Virus record (IMG/VR): IMGVR_UViG_2579778784_000010
Location: 1-10,995 of that record
Source: a virus
Taxonomy: Duplodnaviria; Heunggongvirae; Uroviricota; Caudoviricetes
Strand: one strand, 5' to 3'
Length of the DNA: 10,995 nucleotides
Positions 1 to 10,995 of the stretch are shown piece after piece. Under the pieces are notes generated by a model. The model did no database searches and was not told the DNA's origin. It was given only the letters and a program-made list of their open reading frames with translations. Each line of letters opens with the position of its first letter. Position 1 is the stretch's first letter. Made by a program: the position numbers and the translations under genes.

Positions 1-420
1 ATGACGGATTATCAGCCATACAGGAAAGGAACTGTGCTTGCCCCAACAGGGCCATGCAATCATCTTCATGTGATTTGTAATGATCCTGTTTATTACCCCG
101 TTAACGATTGTTATTGTGTTTTAGTTGTTAATATTTCTAGTATCAAGGATGGTGTCCCCCACGATCCGTCTTGCGTCTTGAATTCTGGTGATCATCGCTT
201 TATCAAGCATCCAAGTTATGTTGTTTACGCTGAAGCTATAATTTGGCGAGTGGATAACATGGTTAGAAAGCAGCGATCGGGTGAGATTTCTGTTCATGAT
301 GATATGCCAGAAGCTACATTCAATAGAATTCTGGACGGTTTTGATATATCTGATGAAGTTACGCCAAAGAACCTTAAATTTAAAAATAAATATTGCGTAT
401 CATCTATTGATGATGAGTAA
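1..420 (+). CDS. AT-rich accessory gene; MazF/PemK-like (Kid/CcdB fold) putative endoribonuclease toxin, 139 aa
   Basis: ORF starts with ATG at window position 1 (true start or an upstream partner gene may lie outside the window); TAA at 418-420. By-eye alignment to E. coli MazF is colinear: CYCVLVV vs CLCVPCT, CVLNSG vs VVLSG, AIIWR vs SIAWR, C-terminal PEATFNRILDGF vs PEELQLIKAKINVLIG. Very AT-rich with rare codons (AGA, AGG, ATA), unlike neighbouring genes. No search run. Confidence 0.45.
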   Translation: MTDYQPYRKGTVLAPTGPCNHLHVICNDPVYYPVNDCYCVLVVNISSIKDGVPHDPSCVLNSGDHRFIKHPSYVVYAEAIIWRVDNMVRKQRSGEISVHDDMPEATFNRILDGFDISDEVTPKNLKFKNKYCVSSIDDE

Positions 421-459
421 ACAACAGGAATTTTTTCGGTATAGCTTCTGGAGTTTTCT

Positions 460-633
460 ATGGAAGATCAAAAAGCAACCAAGCCACAGGTTAAGTTCGA
501 CACAATGAAAGCATTCGCAGGTATGGGGGCTGCTGTTGAAGTTCTGATGAAGGCTGCTCCTAATGCGTTCACTCACGCTACTGTCTCTGGTAAAGAGCAG
601 CAGGGTAAGCTTCGTCGTCGCAAAGTAGCATGA
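460..633 (+). CDS. small hypothetical protein, 57 aa, basic C-terminus (KLRRRKVA)
   Basis: ATG at 460 preceded by GGAG (450-453) with 6-nt spacing; TGA at 631-633; host-like codon usage; immediately followed by a strong intrinsic terminator. Below the length cutoff of the supplied ORF track. Family not recognised. Confidence 0.45.
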   Translation: MEDQKATKPQVKFDTMKAFAGMGAAVEVLMKAAPNAFTHATVSGKEQQGKLRRRKVA

Positions 634-652
634 TCATAGCTGGTGCTTTTTG

Positions 653-681
653 AAAACCCGCCTTTAGGCGGGTTTTTTCTT
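653..681. terminator. bidirectional Rho-independent terminator
   Basis: Perfect hairpin AAAACCCGCC-TTTA-GGCGGGTTTT (653-676) followed by T-run on plus strand; the complement gives a UUUU run for the minus strand. Sits between convergent genes (stops at 631-633 and 681-683). Confidence 0.65.
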
Positions 682-962
682 TAGTGATGTTCTTTGCCCT
701 TCTGTTTGCCTGTTCTGACCTGTTCCCACTCGATACGTCCTTCTTCTCGTCTTTTGTCTATGTATTCCGCAAGATCCTGAATATTGATGCAACGTTTTGC
801 TTTTTGTGATGTGCCGATGCGATATGTTGGAACGGGCAACTTACAAGCGTTTGCTTTTGCTTCTGCCGTGGCTGGACTCATGCCAAAGTACTTTTGGCTA
901 ACTGCTGAGAGTTCAATGTTAGGGGTATTGAATTCAGCCATCAGTAAAAACAAGGTGTTCAT
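681..962 (-). CDS. PrtN-family (pyocin-activator-like) DNA-binding protein, possible excisionase/regulator, 93 aa
   Basis: ATG at 962 with GGAGAAAATT upstream; the ORF track extends to a GTG at 989 with no good RBS. Motif FGMSPATAEAKANACKLPVPTYRIGTSQKA...DLAEYID matches my recollection of the PrtN family. TAA at 681-683 abuts the terminator. Confidence 0.55.
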   Translation of the reverse strand: MNTLFLLMAEFNTPNIELSAVSQKYFGMSPATAEAKANACKLPVPTYRIGTSQKAKRCINIQDLAEYIDKRREEGRIEWEQVRTGKQKGKEHH

Positions 963-998
963 AATTTTCTCCATCAAAACCGGCTGCACCCGGGAAAA

Positions 999-1571
999 TC
1001 ATAATTCTGTGCTGGTGGCAGGAATTAATTTCTGCCAGATAGCGGAAACATATTTTGCCTGATGACGGGCATCGGCCAGGGCGTTGTGCCGTTCGCCATC
1101 GAAAGGCATGTCTATTTTGGGGTCGAATCCGATGGAACGCCCAAGCGTAACGATCGTGCGTACATCGTGGTCATTCCAGTATGCCCACGGGCAGATTTGT
1201 CCTGCTCGCTCATAAGCTCCACGTAAAATTACGTTGTCGAAGGTGGCCCCGTTACCCCAGACTTTTAAATATTTCGTATTGGCTGCGTGCCGGTTAATGA
1301 AATGATTTAGTTCTGAGAGAGCATCGCTGATCGACAAAGTATCATCAATACAGATTGCAGCTCGTGCTTCAGGGCTTTGTTTCAACCACCACAGGATGGT
1401 ATCGCCGTCAGGTGTAGCTCCTTGCCCCATAGCACTTTCCAGGCTAACAACCGTATAGAATTCTTGTCCGATGTCTCCGGTTTCTGGAGTGAAGAACACC
1501 GCGCCAATGGAAACGATCGGTGCATCCTTATTTTTCCCCATCGTCTCAAGGTCGATCATTAAGTTGTTCAT
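999..1571 (-). CDS. DnaQ-like DEDDh 3'-5' exonuclease, 190 aa
   Basis: Exo motifs: IDLETMG (Exo I), WGNGATFD (Exo II), HNALADARHQAKY (Exo III). ATG at 1569-1571 overlaps upstream TGA (ATGA coupling), with GAGGTG RBS; track alternative is GTG at 1574. Confidence 0.75.
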   Translation of the reverse strand: MNNLMIDLETMGKNKDAPIVSIGAVFFTPETGDIGQEFYTVVSLESAMGQGATPDGDTILWWLKQSPEARAAICIDDTLSISDALSELNHFINRHAANTKYLKVWGNGATFDNVILRGAYERAGQICPWAYWNDHDVRTIVTLGRSIGFDPKIDMPFDGERHNALADARHQAKYVSAIWQKLIPATSTEL

Positions 1572-2386
1572 CACTTCACCTCTTGTGATGGTTTTGCTGC
1601 AAAATACTCGATACCTTTATCCCAGATAGATTTTATGGTCGACCACGTGACTGGCACTTTAATTTCAATACGTCCGCTCCCGTCACAGGTATCGCAATCA
1701 TCATCGCCAAAGCATTCCAGGCAGCTTATAAACGTAGTTTCTGAAAATTCACCGGATAGCACCCCCTTAGCGCCGTTCTCGGCTGTTAGTCTCTTCGGCA
1801 CCATAACCCAACCATCCGGAGTTACCGGAGAGTTGCCAGACAGTGCGTTCTGCAATCGTTCCAGCTTAACGTATTCCTGAACCCTGTTTCCGTCGCACGC
1901 CTGAAGCCATTGCACAGCCTTTTGCGCATCAGTGTGAAAGGCACAAGTGCGACCGTCATCAAATTGCATTTCGTAGAGGTCAGCAACCTGTTTAAACTGC
2001 GTTTGTGGCAACTTGTAAGCCCGGCTTGCAGGTACGGCACTATAGAGCATGGCAGCGCGGCAGGCATTCCAGCCTGTAGCGTATGCAGCCGCTTTGCTGC
2101 TGCCTTCAACTGGCGCATCCTGCCAATACATTTCTTCCGGCACTACCGGCGCTGGAGGGACAGTGTAAAGCTGGTGCGTTCCATCAGGCAGCGAGTGACC
2201 TACATACTCACCGAACCCGTCAACACACATGCTCCCATCTTCAATAATGCATGACGCTACTGGCTCCGCTTCCAGCGATGCCAGAGCAATTTCATAAGCC
2301 CGGCGCTCAATATTGTCTCGAACGTCCAGGCTGCCTATGCGTTCTTTGATTTCTTTAATCATTTCTTTGTCGGTTAAAGTTGTCAT
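1571..2386 (-). CDS. hypothetical phage early protein, 271 aa, with C-terminal Cys cluster (possible zinc ribbon)
   Basis: ATG at 2386 with GAGGA RBS; C-terminus CLECFGDDDCDTCDGSGRIEI has CxxC...CxxCxGxG spacing. Coding-like codon usage; operon context. Confidence 0.6.
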   Translation of the reverse strand: MTTLTDKEMIKEIKERIGSLDVRDNIERRAYEIALASLEAEPVASCIIEDGSMCVDGFGEYVGHSLPDGTHQLYTVPPAPVVPEEMYWQDAPVEGSSKAAAYATGWNACRAAMLYSAVPASRAYKLPQTQFKQVADLYEMQFDDGRTCAFHTDAQKAVQWLQACDGNRVQEYVKLERLQNALSGNSPVTPDGWVMVPKRLTAENGAKGVLSGEFSETTFISCLECFGDDDCDTCDGSGRIEIKVPVTWSTIKSIWDKGIEYFAAKPSQEVK

Positions 2387-2389
2387 GTG

Positions 2390-2677
2390 TTAGTCCTCAT
2401 CCACTTCAACGCCATCTTTCAGCGTGATGCCGTGCCAATCATCAGCCCAACTGGTTAGCCCTGGCGCATCAATGCTAGGCATATAAACGCTTGCAGTGTG
2501 GTAGCCCTTATCGTTATCAATGCTGGCAACGTGCTCGCCGTTGTATGCGCTCAGCGTGTCCAGGACGCTATAAAACTTTCCTCCGGCTGCCCTGAAATCC
2601 TTTACAGCCTTCACAAGGCGATTCCACGCTTTTTCCTGTTCTGGCGTCAGGTCGATTAATTCCTGCAAAGTTGCCAT
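2390..2677 (-). CDS. hypothetical phage early protein, 95 aa, acidic C-terminus
   Basis: ATG at 2677 preceded by AAGGAG (8-nt spacing); TAA at 2390-2392; 3-nt gap to the next gene. Confidence 0.6.
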   Translation of the reverse strand: MATLQELIDLTPEQEKAWNRLVKAVKDFRAAGGKFYSVLDTLSAYNGEHVASIDNDKGYHTASVYMPSIDAPGLTSWADDWHGITLKDGVEVDED

Positions 2678-2678
2678 A

Positions 2679-3173
2679 TCACTCTCCTTTGATGCGAATG
2701 CCAGTGGTACTCATTCTCCTGATTTCCCAGAGCACACGAGGAACACCACCGTTTCCGACCGGATCGCGTTTACTCCGCAGGGCGACGCTTGATTCCGCCC
2801 AGCTTTTTCTTGGAGGAAGCTCTTTCACACGAACAAAACCAGCTGCGCGAAGAGATGCTCCTGATTCATCTGCCTGGGTGTACGTAATACAACGTTGATA
2901 ACCCATAGCCTTTGCTGCCCGCCAGACAGCACCATAAAGCGCGCTGTTAGCGTTGCGTTCTCCTGTGGTACATGTGCGATTTACTTCAAGCGTTAATCCA
3001 TCGTCCAAATGTCGTGCAACAGGTCGACCAGCTGTCGCCACACCTATCAATTCTCCGGCATTATTTCTCAGACCAATGCTGAATTTATGCCCCACTGGTG
3101 GTTTATTGTGTCGGTGGTGCTGTGCGATAAATTCCTGCGCCGCTTTCAGCGTTATAGGTGAAATGACCATCAC
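2679..3173 (-). CDS. hypothetical phage early protein, about 163-164 aa
   Basis: Start GTG 3173 or ATG 3170 (ATGA overlap with upstream stop), AAGGAGG upstream; TGA at 2679-2681. Family not recognised. Confidence 0.55.
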   Translation of the reverse strand: MMVISPITLKAAQEFIAQHHRHNKPPVGHKFSIGLRNNAGELIGVATAGRPVARHLDDGLTLEVNRTCTTGERNANSALYGAVWRAAKAMGYQRCITYTQADESGASLRAAGFVRVKELPPRKSWAESSVALRSKRDPVGNGGVPRVLWEIRRMSTTGIRIKGE

Positions 3174-3706
3174 TCAGACTCCTCCTTGATGCCAGCGGCG
3201 CGGGAATCATTCCATCGCTTTACTTCTTCACGAATTACGTCAATGCATTCTTTCGAATCCATTAGGTAATCTTCATCAAAAAGACGTTCCTGTTCGTTTT
3301 CTATCGCAACAATGATTGCTTCAACTAATTTTTGTGCCTGAGAATCACTTTCTAACTCTGCAATGCGCTTACTCCCATCCGAGATAACACCTTCGTAATA
3401 CACACGCTGCTCGTTGAGTTTTGATTTTGTCTCCTCAAGCTCAACTCTCAGCTTCCCTACCGTTAGCGCAATATCCTCGTTCTCCTGGTCGCGGAGTTTG
3501 ATGTATTGCTGTTTTTCGTCCAGCTCATCCAACAGCCCGGCGATAATGTCCACTTCCCGATGACGGATTTCTCGCTTAAACGCCGCTAAAGCTGCATCAC
3601 AATCCTGTTCAGCGTTTGGACTGTCTGGCTTTTCCTGATACCACGCCAGAGTCGATTGATAGTTTTGTGCTGCCTTACGCAACGCCTGATAGTCAATCTC
3701 GCTCAC
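3170..3706 (-). CDS. coiled-coil early-left protein, possibly Ead/Ea22-like, 178 aa
   Basis: GTG at 3706 preceded by AAGGAGG (6-nt spacing); the longer track ORF (to 4054) has a junk-like N-terminus overlapping two other genes. Sequence rich in E/K/L/Q heptad-like segments. Family assignment from memory only. Confidence 0.5.
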   Translation of the reverse strand: MSEIDYQALRKAAQNYQSTLAWYQEKPDSPNAEQDCDAALAAFKREIRHREVDIIAGLLDELDEKQQYIKLRDQENEDIALTVGKLRVELEETKSKLNEQRVYYEGVISDGSKRIAELESDSQAQKLVEAIIVAIENEQERLFDEDYLMDSKECIDVIREEVKRWNDSRAAGIKEESE

Positions 3707-3941
3707 TGGTGCCTCCTTTACGGATCTGCGCTGCGATGCACGAAAAAAAAGACTCTCGCGTATGACAGTTAAGAGCTGGTGCGAACGCCGCGTTAAGAAC
3801 GGCGGCATCACAGCCGTCATCAATATAGAGCGCAATTTTTTTCTCCAGGCGCGCTTTGGCTTCCTGCAACTGCATACCCCGGCACGCACGCGGGATATAC
3901 TCAGCAATTTGAGCGATAGATTTTTCGTTCTGTTTAAACAT
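3693..3941 (-). CDS. hypothetical small phage protein, 82 aa
   Basis: ATG at 3941 with GAGGTG RBS; good codon usage; overlaps the downstream gene by 14 nt; contains an A8/T8 homopolymer (3743-3750). Confidence 0.5.
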   Translation of the reverse strand: MFKQNEKSIAQIAEYIPRACRGMQLQEAKARLEKKIALYIDDGCDAAVLNAAFAPALNCHTRESFFSCIAAQIRKGGTSERD

Positions 3942-4137
3942 GCTTCACCTCGATAGGCTTGATGGTATCGATCAGCAGTCGGCGGCGAGTATTTTCTGCA
4001 AAGTGGCGGCGTCCGGTTTCTTTGTGGTAAAACTCGTTTTTTCCGACGACCCACATCCGCTTTGTCTGGTGCAGTTTTTTTACCTGCGGACCGTCTCGGG
4101 TGATAACAATTCCTGTATGAGTTTTTATCACGCTCAT
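3934..4137 (-). CDS. hypothetical small basic phage protein, 67 aa
   Basis: ATG at 4137 with GGAGAA RBS; 8-nt overlap with the next gene; operon context. Confidence 0.45.
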   Translation of the reverse strand: MSVIKTHTGIVITRDGPQVKKLHQTKRMWVVGKNEFYHKETGRRHFAENTRRRLLIDTIKPIEVKHV

Positions 4138-4496
4138 TTTTTATTCTCCGGTGCTTTCGGCATTACTGCCCAGTGAGTGATATTGACGTTTTCAAGGTCC
4201 CCGACCTGAAATGTCCACTGCCATTCTCCGGTTTCTTTTTGTCCCCAGGTGTACCAGAGAGAACGCCAGCCAATTAGCCAGCCTTCTCCGTTAGCATCAA
4301 ATAACAGAACACTTTCATTTGCTGGCGGCAGTTCAGCTGACACTGGTATTATTTTGTTTTCCAGTGCCGCACATTTAGCTTCAAGCGCATCGAATTTACG
4401 TACCAGGTACTCAGCATTTGTTTCATTCACTTTCAGATCTCGTGGTACACATTTCCCGCGAAGAAACCCTTCCATTTCGAAAACATTCATGCGCAT
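4134..4496 (-). CDS. yfdS: YfdS-like phage protein (DUF551-type as I recall), 120 aa
   Basis: Tryptophan-rich C-terminal segment (GWLIGWRSLWYTWGQKETGEWQW); length equals K-12 YfdS (120 aa) and it sits directly after the YfdR-like gene as in CPS-53. ATG at 4496 overlaps the YfdR-like stop. Symbol by recalled synteny and length, not by search. Confidence 0.6.
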   Translation of the reverse strand: MRMNVFEMEGFLRGKCVPRDLKVNETNAEYLVRKFDALEAKCAALENKIIPVSAELPPANESVLLFDANGEGWLIGWRSLWYTWGQKETGEWQWTFQVGDLENVNITHWAVMPKAPENKK

Positions 4497-5023
4497 GTGC
4501 GTAACTCCGATAACTCGTTAAAGCGCTCCATAAACATCCCGTAGGCATGGCTCGGAGCCAGTGGAATAACTTTGAACATTTCTGTTGCCGGGATACCTTC
4601 CAGTACTGGCCAGAAAGAGCCATCATCAAGCCCGAGATCGCGGCGTTCGGTTGCCAGCATGATGAGATCGGCATATTTCACAGGCGTGCTCATAACCGGG
4701 GGTAACCCGTATTTCTCACGGATTACGGCGTCTATTTTTTCTTCCATCCGTTTATAGTCAGGAAGAAGGCGTTTCAGTGGAGCGGGAATGTCCTGGCAAT
4801 ACGCTTCTGTTGCATCATGCATTAACGCTTCAAAAGCAAATTCCTGCGGCACCAGCTGGCTGCAAAGCACCGCATGCTGGGCGACACTGTAGAAGTGTGA
4901 AAGATGTCCTGCAAAGCGACAGATATTTGAAAGGGAAACCGCGATATCGTTAATCACGATGTCGTCTTTATTTATCTTGTCATAATAAAAATGCTTCCCG
5001 GAAAAAGTTTTAATAAATGACAT
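4487..5023 (-). CDS. yfdR: HD-domain phosphohydrolase, YfdR-like (5'-deoxynucleotidase family), 178 aa
   Basis: ATG at 5023 with GGAGAA RBS (the track ORF starts further upstream at 5086). HD signature (H...HDATEAY...D). 178 aa equals K-12 YfdR. Confidence 0.7.
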   Translation of the reverse strand: MSFIKTFSGKHFYYDKINKDDIVINDIAVSLSNICRFAGHLSHFYSVAQHAVLCSQLVPQEFAFEALMHDATEAYCQDIPAPLKRLLPDYKRMEEKIDAVIREKYGLPPVMSTPVKYADLIMLATERRDLGLDDGSFWPVLEGIPATEMFKVIPLAPSHAYGMFMERFNELSELRTCA

Positions 5024-5151
5024 TTCGTTCTCCACTTTATATGCGCTGCACCGCGCTGAATTCGGGTAAAAGGAATCCCGCACCATCCGGCGATTATTGA
5101 GTTAATTACGTTTCCATAAATGCCCCCGCAGGGGCATTTGCAGTAATGAAA

Positions 5152-5976
5152 TCAGGCGGTGAAAGTACCAATAAAGGTTTCTACTTTGCTGTCTTTGAAT
5201 TTCTCAACAAGCAGATCACGAAATTCGTTAGCCATTTCTTCCTGCACTGCTTCCAGCTGAATAATGCGCAGAACCAGTACAGGACGATCGCCAGTGATAA
5301 CGCTGAGGCGTAATTTAAATGGACGTTCTTTCAGACCTTCAAACGGAACGCATTTAAATTCAAATGCCACTGGCATAATATCTTTGGTTTTCGCTTCGAC
5401 AGACTCCATCAGGGAGCGTTTGCCGCTGAAGTCATTATCTTCAAAATCAGCGGTCTGGTTTGCTTCAATCGTGATTTTACGGACAGCCGCAGCCGCTTTT
5501 GTTGCCTGAATAGCGTCACCATTAGCATCAAAGCCCACAAGGTAGTCGGCCCAGTCTTCAATCCATTCTGCCAGTGACTTCTGGGAATGACGCTCGCCGT
5601 TAACAGACAACAGAGCAGAGAACGGTGCTGTCTTTTTCAGTTTGAGAGTGGCGGTGTTATCTGCGTGACCTGGTTCATCAATAGTACCCAGGTTAAGTAC
5701 ACTGACGGCACGCATATTATCAGCATCGATAAAGCAGCGGGTGCCTTCATCTGCAAGATCTTTAGAATAACGGGTAAAGTCATCGATGCTGGCAGTGGAA
5801 AGCGCACCACGGAAACGGAAGCGATTTAAATTAAATTTTTCCAGATCATGAATGAGGAAATTCTCGGGCAATGCCACAGCATCGGCACCAATCTTACTGA
5901 TAATTTCATTAACACCCTGAGCAGAAATAAGGGCATGGATTTGATTAATTGCGGTTGCGTCTAAGTTCTGAGACAT
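5152..5976 (-). CDS. yfdQ: YfdQ-like protein (DUF2303-type as I recall), 274 aa
   Basis: ATG at 5976 with GAGGA RBS; TGA at 5152-5154. 274 aa equals K-12 YfdQ; position between the YfdP-like and YfdR-like genes matches CPS-53. Confidence 0.7.
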
Positions 5977-6041
5977 AATAAGTCCTCACTATATAAAGAT
6001 ATTCAGTGATGAGATAAATAATCAGTTAATTAAGAACGATA

Positions 6042-6404
6042 TTAATGACCTGCTGCGCGTAGTTTTCCGTCAGGTTCACCGGCAAGAGTCAGTAATTGTC
6101 CCTGGTCTTCCTGCAGAATAGTCAGACGACCACCGCGATTGACATACATCGGCGTTTCGGTGGTGTCTTCTTCGGAAATTTTCCCGCGGTTAGTCGGGCG
6201 AACATATGAGAGTTTGTGTTTGATTTTCACACGGTTCTCATCAAATGGTTCGATTTCCAGGTTGAGTGAGACCTTACCTTTGGTTTTCGTGTTCATCACA
6301 CCGGAAGCGACTTCACTGAGAACTGCGCCGATTTTGGTTTCAAATACGCCGCCGTCCAGCTCCCCGATAAATGCCTGCACATCAGTACTGCGTTCGCTAG
6401 CCAT
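6042..6404 (-). CDS. yfdP: YfdP-like protein, 120 aa
   Basis: ATG at 6404 with GAGGAG RBS 7 nt upstream. The 226-aa track ORF extends upstream through GC-rich non-coding sequence and a terminator hairpin, so is rejected. 120 aa equals K-12 YfdP. Confidence 0.6.
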   Translation of the reverse strand: MASERSTDVQAFIGELDGGVFETKIGAVLSEVASGVMNTKTKGKVSLNLEIEPFDENRVKIKHKLSYVRPTNRGKISEEDTTETPMYVNRGGRLTILQEDQGQLLTLAGEPDGKLRAAGH

Positions 6405-6872
6405 TTTGCTGCTCCTCATCATATCGACCCTGCAAGGTCGGTTGGTTTCTCCACAAAACAGAGAAGAACACCTGCGGTGGCAGCCGCCCGGATGGATTGG
6501 GTTATGAGCCCGTCGTCCGGTGATGCTCTTCTCTGTTTTGTAAAAAGAGCGGTACCAGCCGGAAGCAAGGGTACAAGCTGGTACCGCCAGGACTACACAC
6601 AGCATAAAGTTGTGGTGCCGGGTGCCTCCCGGTGCCTGGCGAAGGTTGCACACCAGGCGGGTGGGTATCCACAGAAGGTCGACTGTCAGCCTCAACCTTA
6701 ACCCGCGTGCGCTGAGCCGCATTCACCACAACGCTAAGGATTCTCTCTGGTTGAAAATACTTAGCTGTTATGTGCCTGCTTTTAGCCACATCAGGCGAGG
6801 TGGGCCTGGTTATTCCCCAACAACAAGGATTCGGCTAATCTGGATGACTCTGTTCTTAGAGGGGATAATTAA
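6405..6872 (-). other. GC-rich structured untranslated leader of the early-left operon (candidate regulatory RNA region)
   Basis: No ORF with a credible start or RBS; open in several frames at once (GC-rich). Perfect 15-bp inverted repeat 6453-6467/6527-6541, 11-bp inverted repeat 6549-6559/6577-6587, and adjacent short hairpins at 6628-6660. Confidence 0.4.
6541..6587 (-). terminator. intrinsic terminator in early-left leader (tL-like)
   Basis: Minus-strand RNA: GCGGUACCAGC-(17 nt loop)-GCUGGUACCGC followed by UCUUUUUA; about 140 nt upstream of the YfdP-like start. Confidence 0.45.
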
Positions 6873-7385
6873 ATGGGAGCGATTTATGTTAAACGTTTGA
6901 TTCTGTCGGTAGCACTGATAATACCGATAGCATCCAATGCTTCTGATGCTTTGAACCAGCCGAGCAGTAGTCTAAATGATGGTGTTGAGACTTTTTTTAT
7001 TTCCTGCTTTGATATGCCTCAGGAAACAACTACTGATATGGACGCTTGTCAGAGAGTTCAGTTAGCTCAGGTTAGTTGGGTTAAGAATAAGTATTCGGTG
7101 GCCGCCCTGAATCGTTTGAAACAAGACAACAAGGATGATCCACAGCGTCTGCAGGAATTAACTGCTTCTTTTAACGCGGAAAGTGAAGCTTGGACAGAAT
7201 TAATTGAGAAAGCGTCAAAGTCCGTCCAGGTTGATTATGCAGGAGGAACTATAGCTGGCACTGCAGTTGCATCACGTCAAATTGGTCTTCTGGAATTACA
7301 ATCCCACGATATCTGGGAGCACTGGCTACGATTCGAGGACTCAACTCCTCCTCTTTTGCCAGAACCAAAGTTCAAATCTGAGTAA
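6873..7385 (+). CDS. secreted DUF1311/LprI-like (YecT-like) protein, 170 aa; opposite-strand moron
   Basis: ATG at 6873 with AGAGGGG upstream. N-terminal signal peptide (KR, hydrophobic core LILSVALIIPIA, ASNA/SDA cleavage-like site), two Cys, then W...Y...DYAGGTIAGTAVASR...DIW pattern I associate with DUF1311. AT-rich with rare codons; own terminator downstream. Confidence 0.65.
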   Translation: MGAIYVKRLILSVALIIPIASNASDALNQPSSSLNDGVETFFISCFDMPQETTTDMDACQRVQLAQVSWVKNKYSVAALNRLKQDNKDDPQRLQELTASFNAESEAWTELIEKASKSVQVDYAGGTIAGTAVASRQIGLLELQSHDIWEHWLRFEDSTPPLLPEPKFKSE

Positions 7386-7410
7386 TAAGTCATCCAGATT
7401 GTTAAAGAGC

Positions 7411-7436
7411 GAAGCGTCCTATAGGGCGCTTTTTTG
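7411..7436 (+). terminator. Rho-independent terminator of the moron
   Basis: Hairpin GAAGCGTCC-TATA-GGGCGCTT followed by TTTTT, about 25 nt after the TAA at 7383-7385. Confidence 0.55.
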
Positions 7437-7594
7437 TTGCTAACGAATCATCCTGGACTTCATATGCCCCAGGCGGCTACTTCGTGGTCGTCCTGACTGT
7501 TCGTTTTTGACATTTACTGACCGCTTACGACACATGCACCATGCACCGTGTTGCAACCAGATTTTGTTGTAATCCTGTAGTTGGTCTGGAACAA

Positions 7595-7623
7595 AAGATA
7601 AAATTAAAATGCGAGATGTGCAA
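7595..7623 (-). promoter_or_regulatory. PL-like leftward early promoter
   Basis: On minus strand: -35 TTGCAC (complement of 7618-7623), 17-nt spacer, -10 TATCTT (complement of 7595-7600); the -35 lies inside an operator repeat. Confidence 0.35.
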
Positions 7624-7646
7624 GCAATATTTTGCGAGATGTGCAA
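7609..7646. promoter_or_regulatory. OL-like operator pair
   Basis: Two copies of a 15-bp pseudo-palindrome, ATGCGAGATGTGCAA (7609-7623) and TTGCGAGATGTGCAA (7632-7646), sharing an identical 14-bp core and fitting TTGCG-N5-YGCAA; the same half-sites recur at OR. Confidence 0.5.
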
Positions 7647-7656
7647 AATGATGGGT

Positions 7657-7682
7657 GATAAAAAGCCACCTTTCGGTGGCCG
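7657..7682 (-). terminator. intrinsic terminator downstream of cI
   Basis: Minus-strand hairpin GCCACC-GAAA-GGUGGC followed by UUUUUA, about 20 nt after the cI stop (7701-7703). Confidence 0.5.
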
Positions 7683-7700
7683 ATGGATGGGATATTGAAG

Positions 7701-8393
7701 TTAATTATGTCTCTTAAGGGTTTGCGACTGACTGATTAAGACCTTTCCAAAGACCATGAATCGGTGTTCGTTTTCGCTAGTAATTCCCCATTCACGGTAA
7801 ATCTGGTTATCAGAAATCACCAGCAGTTTGTCAGGAATCATTTGAAGTCTTTTAACGTATATTTTGTCATCAAAACCAAAGACATATATACCATCACCAT
7901 CAAACTGATTGATGCTGACATCAACGAAGATGAGATCTCCTGGCTCAATGGTTGGACACATACTGTCCCCACGAACGTTGATAACTTTGATGTGATTGGC
8001 TGGTCGTCCGCCGAACATTGATACAGCATTATCAGTTCTGTATTCGATGGCATGAATCACATCAATGACATCACCGCCCTGGATAAGGCCATTTCCCGCA
8101 CTGGCACTGATATCCAGCATTTCAATACGGAACACATCCTTCACCTGCGCAACATCCTCATCATTACTGTTTTTATATACAGTATTACTTTTGAGGGCAG
8201 AGGTAAAGAGATCAGCAATATCAACACCTAAGCTCTTGGCAATATTACTCAGTGTTTGTTCGGTAAATTGTTTCTGCTTACCCGTTTCTAAGCGCGAGAT
8301 GTTCGCCGCATCTACTCCTATTGCTTCAGCGAGATCGGCGATTTTCATGTTCTTCGCTTGGCGAAGTTGTCTGACTCGGTTTCCTATGTTCAT
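7701..8393 (-). CDS. cI: cI-like prophage repressor (XRE-type HTH plus S24 LexA-like peptidase), 230 aa
   Basis: N-terminal HTH (IADLAEAIGVDAANISRLETGK); C-terminal S24 motifs GDSM (Ser) and YVKRL (Lys); Ala-Gly candidate autocleavage site (SASAGNG). Divergent from the cro-like gene with operators between. ATG at 8393 has no SD. Confidence 0.85.
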   Translation of the reverse strand: MNIGNRVRQLRQAKNMKIADLAEAIGVDAANISRLETGKQKQFTEQTLSNIAKSLGVDIADLFTSALKSNTVYKNSNDEDVAQVKDVFRIEMLDISASAGNGLIQGGDVIDVIHAIEYRTDNAVSMFGGRPANHIKVINVRGDSMCPTIEPGDLIFVDVSINQFDGDGIYVFGFDDKIYVKRLQMIPDKLLVISDNQIYREWGITSENEHRFMVFGKVLISQSQTLKRHN

Positions 8394-8399
8394 GCGTTT

Positions 8400-8428
8400 A
8401 TTACATTTCTTTATTGCGTGATAAGCAA
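8400..8428 (-). promoter_or_regulatory. PRM-like promoter for leaderless cI transcript
   Basis: Minus strand: -35 TTGCTT (complement of 8423-8428), 17-nt spacer, -10 TGTAAT (complement of 8400-8405) ending 6 nt before the cI ATG, so transcription would begin at or next to the start codon. The -35 overlaps operator 8414-8428. Confidence 0.4.
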
Positions 8429-8476
8429 ATCAACTTGCGCAAAACACTTGCGTGAAATAACATGCATAACGCGCAA
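8414..8476. promoter_or_regulatory. OR-like operator region
   Basis: TTGCGTGATAAGCAA (8414-8428), palindrome TTGCGCAA (8435-8442), ATGCATAACGCGCAA (8462-8476); same TTGCG/CGCAA half-sites as OL. Confidence 0.45.
8435..8463 (+). promoter_or_regulatory. PR-like rightward promoter
   Basis: -35 TTGCGC (8435-8440), 17-nt spacer, -10 TAACAT (8458-8463); followed by GGAGGG RBS and the cro-like ATG at 8491. Confidence 0.35.
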
Positions 8477-8490
8477 TATTTGGAGGGTAT

Positions 8491-8751
8491 ATGCAATCAC
8501 CATTACGAAATGTGCGTAAGGCGCATGGTTTCACTTTGCAGCATGTTGCTGCGGGTGTTCAAGTCAATCCAGCGACGTTGAGTCGTATTGAGAGGCTGGA
8601 ACAGATTCCATCTATCGAGCTTGCAGAACGTTTAGCCAATTTTTTTAAGGGTGAAATCAGCGAAATGCAGATTCTTTATCCGGCACGTTTTCAATCTAGC
8701 CAAAACCAGAATGGGTTTAAACCACAGGAACAGGAGGTGAACCGTGGGTAA
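8491..8751 (+). CDS. cro: Cro-like HTH (XRE family) regulator, 86 aa
   Basis: First gene rightward of the operator region, divergent from cI; HTH segment FTLQHVAAGVQVNPATLSRIER; GGAGGG RBS. Confidence 0.65.
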   Translation: MQSPLRNVRKAHGFTLQHVAAGVQVNPATLSRIERLEQIPSIELAERLANFFKGEISEMQILYPARFQSSQNQNGFKPQEQEVNRG

Positions 8752-9295
8752 GCATCACTGGAAAGTAGACAAACAGCCTGAGTGGTTCGTGAAAGCTGTC
8801 AGAAAAACTATCGCAGCGTTGCCTGGGGGTTACGCTGAAGCTGCTGACTGGCTGGATGTAACAGAGAACGCATTATTTAACCGCCTTCGTGCCGATGGCG
8901 ATCAGATTTTCCCGCTGGGATGGGCAATGGTTTTACAGCGTGCTGCTGGCACTCACTACATTGCGGATGCTGTCGCACAGTCTGCTGGTGGGGTGTTTGT
9001 ATCGCTTCCTGAAATTGAGGAAGTAGAGAACGCAGATATAAACCAGCGCCTGCTGGAAGTCATCGAACAGATCGGGAGTTACTCAAAGCAGATTCGTTCG
9101 GCAATCGAAGATGGGGTAGTGGAGCCACACGAGCAGACAGCAATTAATGATGAATTGTATCTGTCAATTTCGAAGCTCCAGGAGCATGCGGCACTGGTCT
9201 ACAAAATTTTCTGCGTTCCAGAAAAGAGTGACGCCCGCGAGTGTGCAGCTCCGGGCGTCGTGGCGTTTTGTGTCTGTGGAGAAACTAACGCATGA
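8744..9295 (+). CDS. CII-like regulatory protein (phage 186 CII / CP76 type), 183 aa
   Basis: GTG at 8744 with AGGAGGTGA RBS, overlapping the cro-like stop. Segment TENALFNRLRADGDQIFPLGWAMVL resembles my recollection of 186 CII (NVQTLRNKLNPEQPHQFTPPELWLL). Position after cro fits. Confidence 0.55.
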   Translation: MGKHHWKVDKQPEWFVKAVRKTIAALPGGYAEAADWLDVTENALFNRLRADGDQIFPLGWAMVLQRAAGTHYIADAVAQSAGGVFVSLPEIEEVENADINQRLLEVIEQIGSYSKQIRSAIEDGVVEPHEQTAINDELYLSISKLQEHAALVYKIFCVPEKSDARECAAPGVVAFCVCGETNA

Positions 9296-10128
9296 ACAGT
9301 TTAACGGCAAATAACCGTTTGTCGCAACAGCTGGTGGTCAGTGTCGCTGCACACCTGTTGTTACGGCATGAATGCAGATTACCAAATCACCTGGCTGTAA
9401 GTAACCACAGAGAACTTTACCTGACTGTGGGGGGCGAGTTGTGCAGGAACTTAACCGCTGGTTTCGTGACGGAAGAGGACTTTATGTTCATGTTATTCGT
9501 TGGGAGCCAGAAACACAGCGCGTTATCTATCTTCGCAAAGACTACCCGCATGAGTGCTTTAGTCCTTTGTGGAAATTCAGGCGTGATTTTGTTGAGTGTG
9601 AAGGACCACCAGCACATTGATTCTGCCATTCCGGGACGTTACACTGTTCAGGCACCTTATAAAGCGGGTGCCGGGATTGGCGTCCTGGAAATGTTATCGG
9701 CGATATATGACGCGCCAGCGTCTTTTTTATCGTCTGCGTCTGCGCACACCCAAATTATGGTGGGCTGGACGGGGGCACTGAAAGGTGCGCCGGTTTCCGA
9801 TAACGCCGGTTACGCCAACCCCGTTCAGTTCACCACCAGCGAAATTGGCGTTTCCGGTGGTGAAGGTAATTCACTGTTATCGGAGGCTGCCATCATGGCT
9901 ACTGTCCCAGCCCTCACTCGTCTGAATGATGAAGACTTACATAAACTCAGTTATGTAACAACTGCACTACGTGCTCTGCGCAAGGTAACTCTTTCGGATC
10001 CGCAGGCGCATCAGGTTCTGGTAGAAACCCTTCTTAACTTGCAGGCTGAACGTATCCGTTTGGCGGATAAGGCTAATTTTCATATTCACCGTCTCCTGAA
10101 TATCAGCGGAGGGCATCGTCATGCTTAA
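9292..10128 (+). CDS. hypothetical protein, 278 aa (N-terminal third of doubtful coding quality)
   Basis: ATG at 9292 overlaps the upstream stop (ATGA) with GGAGAA upstream. From about 9620 the codon usage is clearly coding-like; upstream of that it is poorer, and an alternative frame (9441-9620) is also open. Confidence 0.45.
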   Translation: MNSLTANNRLSQQLVVSVAAHLLLRHECRLPNHLAVSNHRELYLTVGGELCRNLTAGFVTEEDFMFMLFVGSQKHSALSIFAKTTRMSALVLCGNSGVILLSVKDHQHIDSAIPGRYTVQAPYKAGAGIGVLEMLSAIYDAPASFLSSASAHTQIMVGWTGALKGAPVSDNAGYANPVQFTTSEIGVSGGEGNSLLSEAAIMATVPALTRLNDEDLHKLSYVTTALRALRKVTLSDPQAHQVLVETLLNLQAERIRLADKANFHIHRLLNISGGHRHA

Positions 10129-10357
10129 TCCGTTGATCCTCAATATTTGCCGTTTGCTTCAGCGCAAAAAAACATCAATTCCTACAGTTGGGCAGTGGTA
10201 CACCACGCCTGCAGGGCATGTTCTACGTGTTAGCCTGGTTGACCGTGAATGTCAGAAGGTGGTTTGTGAACCGCTGGGCCGTAATTACCGCGTCAGTATG
10301 CCGCTTATAGCCTTTCGCTCCGGAAAAAACATGAAGCATCTCGGAGGTGCAGCATGA
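10121..10357 (+). CDS. hypothetical small protein, 78 aa (possibly DUF4222-like)
   Basis: ATG at 10121 with GGAGGG RBS, overlapping the upstream stop; its stop overlaps the next start (ATGA). Family guess is weak. Confidence 0.45.
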   Translation: MLNPLILNICRLLQRKKTSIPTVGQWYTTPAGHVLRVSLVDRECQKVVCEPLGRNYRVSMPLIAFRSGKNMKHLGGAA

Positions 10358-10995
10358 GTATGGAGCTGATGGTTAAAGCGATGAAAATTCGAGTGGGTAA
10401 TCCATTGCGAAAACTGGTTCTGATCAAGCTGGCTGATAATGCCAGCGATCAGGGTGAGTGCTGGCCCAGCTACCAGCATATTGCTGACCAGTGCGAGATT
10501 AGCAAACGTTCTGTGATGAATCATATTGCGGCCCTTTGTGAGTCCGGGCTGGTAAAAAAAGTCACCCGGAAAGGTGAAAAAGGTAACTCAAGTAATATCT
10601 ATCTCCTTCATCTTGATGGTGCAGGAGATTCACTAGGGGGTAGTGCAAATAATTCACTATCTGGTGCAGCAAATTCACCAGGTAGTGCAGGAGTTGCACC
10701 AGGGGGTAGTGCAGGAGATTCACCCAGAACCAGTCACTCTTTTGAACCAGTCAAAGAACCAGTCAATGAACCAATAGCTGTTGGTGCATCTGCTGATGAG
10801 TCTGTGCGAGTTCGTTCAAACCGACCGGAATACTCTCCGGAGTTTGAGCAGGCATGGCTGGCCTATCCCAAACGTGCTGGTGGCAATTCAAAATCTGCAG
10901 CCTTCAAAGCCTGGAAAGCCCGTTTGAATGAGGGGGTAAACCCCGAAACCATGCTGGAAGGTGTGAAACGCTACGCGGGCTGGGTATCTGCGATG
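10354..10995 (+). CDS. replication initiator, lambda-O-like (3' partial; continues past window end)
   Basis: ATG at 10354 with GGAGGTG RBS. N-terminal winged-helix-like segment (PLRKLVLIKLADNASDQGECWPSYQHIADQCEISKRSVMNHIAALCESGLV) resembles the lambda O N-terminus; Gly/Ser/Ala-rich linker is encoded by direct repeats, as with lambda ori in O. Confidence 0.65.
   Translation, partial: MSMELMVKAMKIRVGNPLRKLVLIKLADNASDQGECWPSYQHIADQCEISKRSVMNHIAALCESGLVKKVTRKGEKGNSSNIYLLHLDGAGDSLGGSANNSLSGAANSPGSAGVAPGGSAGDSPRTSHSFEPVKEPVNEPIAVGASADESVRVRSNRPEYSPEFEQAWLAYPKRAGGNSKSAAFKAWKARLNEGVNPETMLEGVKRYAGWVSAM
10618..10777 (+). repeat. iteron-like direct repeats inside the O-like gene (candidate replication origin)
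   Basis: About five imperfect 21-24-bp repeats with core GGTAGTGCAGGAGATTCAC (10618-10725), then four 11-bp repeats GAACCAGTCA(A) (10726-10777). Confidence 0.55.

Follow-up and report, generated by a model that had tools for sequence, protein, structure and literature searches.

We analysed the interval between the CII-like regulator gene ymfL and the replication initiator gene in the IMG/VR viral record IMGVR_UViG_2579778784_000010 (positions 1 to 10,995; this whole 10,995-nt stretch is hereafter the window), which is an SfV/e14-like lambdoid prophage of Escherichia coli. A preliminary description had placed two uncharacterised genes at this junction, each translationally coupled to its neighbours within the PR operon. 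Both open reading frames (ORFs), of 278 and 78 amino acids (aa), were confirmed on the + strand at 9292-10128 and 10121-10357, as were the overlaps on which coupling would depend: ATGA at 9292-9295 with ymfL, 8 nt at 10121-10128 between the two ORFs, and ATGA at 10354-10357 with the replication gene. The PR-operon setting also fits, given an S24 CI-like repressor on the - strand followed by a Cro-like helix-turn-helix (HTH) protein, YmfL and an initiator with HTH_36 and DnaD_N matches. Relative to lambda, there is indeed extra material between the CII-like and O-like genes, and it is regulatory in nature. The ORF map was correct but incomplete: the long ORF contains two RNA genes, position 9895 offers a nested start, and 9441-9620 encodes a 59-aa protein in another frame, none of which had been noticed. 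A regulatory insert stands, two plain unknown protein genes do not. We consider it likely that the interval is an antisense-RNA immunity cassette of the type known from P4, P1 and Gifsy-1, located in the PR operon and operating by an analogous control mechanism (Table 1).

Table 1. Features of the ymfL-initiator region, in window coordinates.
Feature	Position	Strand	Basis and details
CI-like repressor, S24	7701-8393	-	Context gene
Cro-like HTH	8491-8751	+	Context gene
ymfL, CII-like regulator gene	8744..9295	+	NCBIfam NF041471 E 2e-50; Pfam PF06892; RefSeq name ymfL
Putative eta-like long read-through ORF, 278 aa (SfV orf37)	9292..10128	+	Encloses all elements from 9441 to 10128
DUF4222 small protein gene, 59 aa	9441..9620	+	Frame other than that of the long ORF; GTG start, GGGGG 6 nt upstream
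Putative internal sigma-70 promoter	9617..9645	+	TTGATT 9617-9622, 17-nt spacer, TACACT 9640-9645; predicted start ~9652
IsrK/SeqA-like small RNA (sRNA)	9652..9728	+	Rfam RF01394, 63.7 bits (gathering score 50), E 4.5e-12
a1 target box TTGGCGT	9677-9683	+	Complementary to C4 ACGCCAA
b1 target box TGTTATCGG	9692-9700	+	Complementary to the C4 hairpin-2 loop
Intrinsic terminator of the IsrK-like sRNA	Hairpin 9709-9722 and T6 9723-9728	+	Terminator scan
C4/CI-type antisense RNA	9753..9840	+	Rfam RF01695, 79.8 bits (gathering score 45), E 9e-15; full-length match
Downstream C4 target: a2 TTGGCGT 9845-9851, b2 TGTTATCGGAGGCT 9875-9888	9845..9888	+	Duplex search, covariation
Nested 77-aa ORF (MATVPALTRLNDEDL...), frame of the long ORF	9895..10128	+	Shine-Dalgarno and ATG; position of P4 kil and P1 icd
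78-aa ORF (SfV orf38; phrog_1153)	10121..10357	+	Variable N-terminal helix, then conserved core; stop overlaps replication-gene ATG
Replication initiator gene, partial (continues past the window end)	10354..10995	+	Pfam HTH_36, DnaD_N; phrog_270, phrog_8540

The locus is widespread. Many E. coli chromosomes match positions 8400-10995 with 100% identity, 763 of 5426 complete E. coli genomes contain 80% or more of this segment, and orf36-orf39 of Shigella phage SfV share 96.6% identity with the window. We sampled 80 IMG/VR loci carrying a near-identical YmfL, in 69 of which both flanking anchors were located, and found the cassette in 72 of the 80. The form present in the window, with 1066 nt downstream of ymfL, is the commonest (45 of the 69 anchored loci); a form of 1370-1385 nt, in which the same frame ends in a Rha domain, accounts for 24 of the 69, and a third, e14-like form that has only the DUF4222 block in common was found in eight other loci (nine with K-12 e14). 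The preliminary description recognised neither protein family. The 278-aa ORF, however, exceeds the Pfam threshold for Phage_ASH (PF10554) over residues 117-210, with 61.2 bits against a gathering score of 26; it is called an 'ash family protein' in RefSeq and 'orf37: immunity region' in the GenBank copy of SfV, and the PHROG families that match it are labelled 'transcriptional regulator'. A known regulatory family is thus routine at this junction, as the counts in E. coli genomes and IMG/VR loci attest. Counter-defence, one of the roles that had been suggested, is without support: no defence or counter-defence model in PADLOC-DB matched any of the four products.

Two RNA families score above their Rfam gathering thresholds inside the long frame, and both recur at the same offsets in all eight cassette-bearing variant loci, while being absent from e14. 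A weak Rfam match to c4-a1b1 covers 9639-9691. The C4 RNA consists of a 17-bp outer stem enclosing hairpins 1 and 2, with the loop CCGAUAACG and a single-stranded box, ACGCCAA. The box is complementary to TTGGCGT at both 9677 (a1) and 9845 (a2), and the loop to both 9692-9700 (b1) and 9875-9888 (b2); b2 contains a Shine-Dalgarno sequence (GGAGG, 9882-9886) located 8 nt before an in-frame ATG at 9895. The minimum free energy of C4 is -45.2 kcal/mol (z -4.25), and its minimum free energy fold is identical to the Rfam structure. All 27 base pairs are kept in 10 sequences (nine C4 alleles and P4 CI), and 11 of the 27 have changed on both sides, a result matched by none of 500 shuffles; when the pairing partners were slid along the alignment, only about 40% of the cells paired.

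The specificity elements of this RNA vary among prophages. Loop 2 of C4 reads CCGATAAC in the window and CCTTGATCA in the SfV allele, and the loop, b1 and b2 change in concert across eight alleles. In one allele, the single-stranded box, a1 and a2 have changed together. Variation among the 1066-nt forms clusters at 9692-9892, a hypervariable stretch that results from the covariation of the loop with b1 and b2. That these three elements remain matched from allele to allele argues for a working system.

The arrangement resembles three known systems, each with its own differences. In P4, CI is encoded within eta, and a constitutive promoter inside eta produces a transcript that is terminated through CI and the seqA sites. 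Full-length Eta comes only from an upstream promoter and is coupled to the upstream gene, its translation prevents this termination, and Kil is a truncated Eta made on read-through; the circuit gates replication genes, not an antirepressor (PMC10111431). The window shares with P4 a long ORF starting on the upstream stop, RNA genes inside it, a nested ORF in the same frame and replication genes downstream. In our searches, the old 'cI protein' ORF of P4 gave the same Phage_ASH match, lying atop Rfam C4, isrK and c4-a1b1 matches; the P4 frame reaches upstream to ATGATGATG, where it overlaps the stop of ORF88 in an ATGA-type coupling. Farther along, the motif QEAAIMAT, comparable to the SEAAIMAT that precedes ATG 9895 in the window, is followed by a nested ORF of 65 codons, identified here as kil. 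In contrast, P4 is a satellite with an AlpA-like ORF88 upstream, whereas the window is a lambdoid prophage with a CII-like YmfL; its long ORF additionally overlaps a DUF4222 gene in another frame, and its 77-aa product is unrelated, except for the first residues, to the 65-codon ORF taken as Kil.

With immI of P1 and P7, the window shares the order a1-b1-C4-a2-b2-ORF and the location of b2 on the ribosome-binding site of the first ORF. The a2-b2 and b2-ATG spacings are 30 and 20 nt in the window, against 29 and 18 nt in the annotated P1 immI, where the ATG is that of icd. The -10 hexamer of the putative promoter in the window aligns with that of the annotated P1 promoter P1c4/P51b and also with the P4 hexamer TATAGT, taken here as PLE, and both window hexamers are invariant in 54 variants. 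Unlike in P1, the next gene in the window encodes a 78-aa DUF4222-like protein instead of Ant, the 77-aa ORF is not Icd, and, as far as the P1 annotation shows, no long ORF runs through c4 in P1.

In the isrK-orf45-anrP region of Gifsy-1, a Salmonella prophage, IsrK resembles P4 SeqA and a downstream RNA resembles CI (PMC4825925, Hershko-Shalev et al. 2016). Its order is an IsrK-family sRNA with a terminator of its own, the C4-like RNA STnc1160 and an antirepressor-coupled ORF, a layout matched by the Rha-type sister prophages. The differences are that the short IsrK of Gifsy-1 activates translation and that orf45 is a separate ORF, whereas the window lacks an antirepressor and its corresponding ATG, at 9757, shares the frame of the downstream ORF. 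This ATG (9757-9759), located within the 5' end of C4 (AUUAUGG), opens a 123-aa product with a full-length match to phrog_4908, and it lies near the estimated position of the first orf45 AUG in Gifsy-1.

For the long frame, the gene model of RefSeq offers an alternative account: a DUF4222 gene at 9441-9620 and a shorter 'ash family protein' from 9550 would suffice, with no translation from 9292, an untranslated spacer at 9296-9440, and RNAs acting without an eta-like override. Among close variants, selection over 9441-9549 indeed sits in the DUF4222 frame (six synonymous changes and one non-synonymous, against none and seven in the long frame), and the variation of the long frame over 9292-9440 (five synonymous, six non-synonymous) is uninformative. 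Nevertheless, no stop interrupts the frame from 9292 in any of 54 distinct related sequences, whereas the other two frames carry one to seven stops, and each of them has three to five over 9292-9440 alone; none of 20,000 shuffles of 9292-9894 keeps the frame open. A GGAG lies 9 nt upstream of ATG 9292, which overlaps the ymfL stop, and an ORF of 112 codons initiated by MNSL is kept at the same place in e14, a Klebsiella phage and mEp390. Together with the precedent of P4 eta, these observations make it rather unlikely that the RefSeq model is sufficient. The full 278-aa frame is annotated as orf37 in SfV records. No structured element was seen in 9296-9440 (z -0.25).

Across the RNA region, the long frame is open in all 16 alleles, against 2.6% of shuffles. 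Its amino-acid sequence follows another pattern. Over 9621-10120, variable columns among the 1066-nt forms number 44, 40 and 45 by codon position, and 27 synonymous variants stand against 96 non-synonymous ones, with no bias towards third codon positions. The openness of the frame is thus selected while the amino-acid sequence over the RNA genes is not, a pattern consistent with an eta-like function, where being translated is what counts.

The same figures bear on the Phage_ASH match, which covers window positions 9640-9921 (and L084:8330-8704 in P4); this span begins at the promoter -10, takes in isrK, C4 and the targets, and lacks codon-position bias. The 278-aa product could in principle be a true protein regulator, an Ash/Bro-type transcription factor or antirepressor, to which the RNA matches would be incidental; its above-threshold Pfam score, the PHROG labels, the invariably open frame and the real Rha domain that forms the C-terminus in related phages are compatible with this. 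However, the protein-level conservation expected of a Phage_ASH domain was not found, and the even spread of variable columns over codon positions is not that of an evolving protein domain. Every RNA base pair and loop-target duplex survives those changes, and the stretch matched by Pfam is bounded, in the window as in P4, by the promoter -10 and the nested start codon. Moreover, no solved-structure relatives of the 278-aa product were found below E 0.4. We, therefore, regard a protein regulator as highly improbable, and the Phage_ASH 'domain' appears, from its substitution pattern, to be conserved at the RNA level.

The anatomy can be read directly in the window, and a scheme for its dynamics may be drawn from P4, P1 and Gifsy-1. 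In the lysogen, the internal promoter at ~9617-9645 would fire, with most transcripts ending at the 9709-9728 terminator to give a short sRNA. Transcripts reading through would be processed to C4, presumably by RNase P acting on the longer RNA, as we infer by analogy, along with repression of the downstream ORF. C4 would pair with a2 and b2, hiding the ribosome-binding site of the nested ORF and blocking its translation, and this block would cause transcription to end without reaching the 78-aa ORF or the replication genes. After induction, transcripts from PR would bring ribosomes from ymfL directly into the long frame, and their passage across the terminator and target sites would override the block, allowing the replication genes to be expressed. 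The variable loop and its targets would set immunity specificity. In the sister prophages, the same circuit would gate the Rha antirepressor.

Several points count against the cassette interpretation. The putative promoter matches the consensus at 8 of 12 positions, below the 9/12 threshold of the scanner, and was not called; the isrK fold is thermodynamically ordinary (z -0.70); and the full 278-aa frame is absent from the RefSeq annotation. The nested 77-aa ORF has neither similarity to P1 Icd nor a known function, which leaves the pay-off of the control unsupported here. Finally, we infer promoter activity, RNA processing, Rho-dependent termination and translational override alike from the analogous systems.

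The nested ORF also raises the question of decay. In related prophages, a Rha-type antirepressor begins at the same ATG, and the long variants match Phage_pRha with E 4.9e-31. The cassette in the window might thus be a decaying remnant, in which a meaningless 77-aa tail has taken the place of Rha and the RNAs are now useless. The tail is almost without relatives: an exhaustive HMMER search retrieved only near-identical proteins and two at 46% identity, the remaining hits, on long repetitive proteins, being spurious. Its variable columns (10, 2 and 11 by codon position) indicate a moderate coding pattern. On the other hand, this short form is the commonest among the anchored IMG/VR loci, it comprises at least four specificity alleles (window, SfV, L035-type and L048-type), in each of which the loop, b1 and b2 are matched, and P4 provides a precedent for a circuit that gates replication genes rather than an antirepressor. 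Since decay would not preserve matched loops and targets, we consider a remnant very unlikely. Homology of the nested ORF to P1 Icd was explored and rejected: BLASTP returned no alignment, and NCBIfam NF033153 gave no match, while P1 Icd itself matches that model with E 3e-14.

Upstream of the RNA genes, the 59-aa ORF, overprinted in another frame on the N-terminal third of the long ORF, matches Pfam PF13973 (DUF4222) with E 9.5e-14 and 51.1 bits, against a gathering score of 27, and is annotated in RefSeq. Its variable columns by codon position number 0, 1 and 6. Between the window and e14, the proportions of non-synonymous (pN) and synonymous (pS) differences are 0.28 and 0.90 in this frame (pN/pS 0.31), and 0.44 and 0.26 in the frame of the long ORF and ymfM (pN/pS 1.7). 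Among e14, the Klebsiella phage and mEp390, the DUF4222 ratio is 0.09-0.18. Judged by these comparisons, the 59-aa gene is under strong purifying selection. AlphaFold2 predicts that its product is a small beta-barrel (pLDDT 83.6), and a Foldseek search of this model against the PDB returned only generic SH3/Tudor/KOW-like small barrels, with no functional lead. The one family member found to have been studied, RgdR (ECs1581), is a pleiotropic regulator encoded by a prophage of enterohaemorrhagic E. coli; it activates LEE1, represses motility, binds DNA weakly and non-specifically, and has a reported DUF4222 domain. The likeness between this 99-aa protein and the 59-aa protein lies in the reported domain and does not come from a sequence alignment.

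The DUF4222 gene may also bear on ymfM of e14, whose region (L003:4823-5181) corresponds to 9292-9620 of the window. In K-12, ymfM is annotated as a 'cell division inhibitor' and overlaps a strongly conserved 59-aa DUF4222 gene that lies in another frame and is unannotated there; this gene begins at a TTG behind an AAGGAG Shine-Dalgarno sequence, and its stop codon overlaps the start of oweE. The RefSeq annotation of UTI89 takes the opposite choice, with the DUF4222 gene annotated and ymfM not. The N-terminus of the 278-aa ORF aligns with YmfM by BLASTP (32% identity, E 3e-8), and the similarity is confined to the first five residues and the DUF4222-overlapping stretch, where the long/ymfM frame has pN greater than pS. 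The N-terminal half of YmfM is under weak to moderate constraint (pN/pS 0.43-0.92), and from these ratios the YmfM and DUF4222 products may both be real. An idea that the long ORF and e14 ymfM were merely spurious was withdrawn, as the frame is open in every variant; the pN/pS of 0.43 for the YmfM N-termini of e14 and the Klebsiella phage and the known translation of P4 eta also speak against it.

In the ymfM preprint, the whole ORF was cloned, and no frame-specific mutant was found in its text; the library clones that first implicated the locus hold both frames. We propose tentatively, as a possibility that we would not favour, that the stretch carries up to four kinds of information, two in any one part, and that the e14 filamentation assigned to YmfM (SfiC) comes wholly or partly from the DUF4222 protein. 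The layers would be a drifting, translated read-through frame, a second frame encoding the strongly conserved DUF4222 protein, and a pair of regulatory RNAs together with the sites they target. DUF4222 is conceivable as the cause of filamentation because the accessible published constructs and deletions leave the two frames unseparated. If this is true, the identity of SfiC, the SOS division inhibitor of e14, may need to be revisited frame by frame.

At the other end of the cassette, the 78-aa ORF has a core with 5, 2 and 15 variable columns by codon position and 17 synonymous against seven non-synonymous changes, a pattern by which it is a real, conserved gene. In the Rha-type variants the ORF is uninterrupted but has a different N-terminus. 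Its relatives occur only in Enterobacteriaceae. It had no match in Pfam, NCBIfam or PADLOC, the Pfam DUF4222 model included at E up to 10. It does align with DUF4222 proteins in a single register, non-significantly (BLASTP E 0.022, hhalign probability 2.4%), and in the hhalign register the strand-strand-strand-strand-helix-strand order predicted by the AlphaFold2 models of the 78-aa protein and DUF4222 coincides. Given the unmatched Pfam model and the non-significant hhalign score, membership of DUF4222 by sequence was not retained, and the predicted order of secondary structure alone was kept. On that predicted order, the cassette would be flanked by two small DUF4222-type genes. A fold search of the 78-aa model against BFVD retrieved generic SH3/Tudor/KOW/DUF1653-like small barrels and no functional lead.

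A DUF4222 or DUF4222-like gene ends on the initiator start codon in the window, e14, the Klebsiella phage, mEp390, YeP2 and phiNP. The six early-operon architectures with this overlap are found at 10121-10357 of the window and, in our locus numbering, at L003:5002-5181, L086:1501-1680, L087:1504-1686, L088:1468-1668 and L089:1501-1668. An initiator-linked role for the 78-aa protein, such as the replication accessory envisaged in the preliminary description, is plausible solely because this coupling to the initiator gene is conserved. The initiator gene itself contains iteron-like tandem repeats at 10639-10724 (periods 21-24) and 10744-10773 (period 12), as expected for an origin embedded in an O-like gene.

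This kind of cassette is already well known, and the phage group has been loosely labelled since the SfV genome record. New here are an explicit description of its anatomy within the PR operon of a lambdoid prophage, eight specificity alleles with matched elements, the apparent conservation of the Ash 'domain' as RNA and the overprinted DUF4222 gene. In thousands of prophage records of E. coli, Shigella and Salmonella, this stretch goes under 'ash family protein', 'transcriptional regulator', 'antirepressor' or 'peptidase'; what is conserved and functional within it would be a hidden DUF4222 gene and two small RNAs with their target sites. The cassette would add a second, RNA-based layer of immunity before the replication genes of SfV-like lambdoid phages, and its at least eight interchangeable specificities would make it a ready system for studying how RNA immunity diversifies.

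Elsewhere in the window, a full-length match to the Rfam family STnc100 (RF02076) was found on the - strand at 6540-6762 (45.4 bits against a gathering score of 47, E 2e-7), in the early-left region; the RefSeq annotation at this place is a frameshifted hypothetical gene. At ~650-676, a strong GC-rich hairpin, AAAACCCGCCUUUAGGCGGGUUUUUU, with A and U runs on either side, has the look of a bidirectional terminator, and it is picked up by weak Rfam models that contain terminators.

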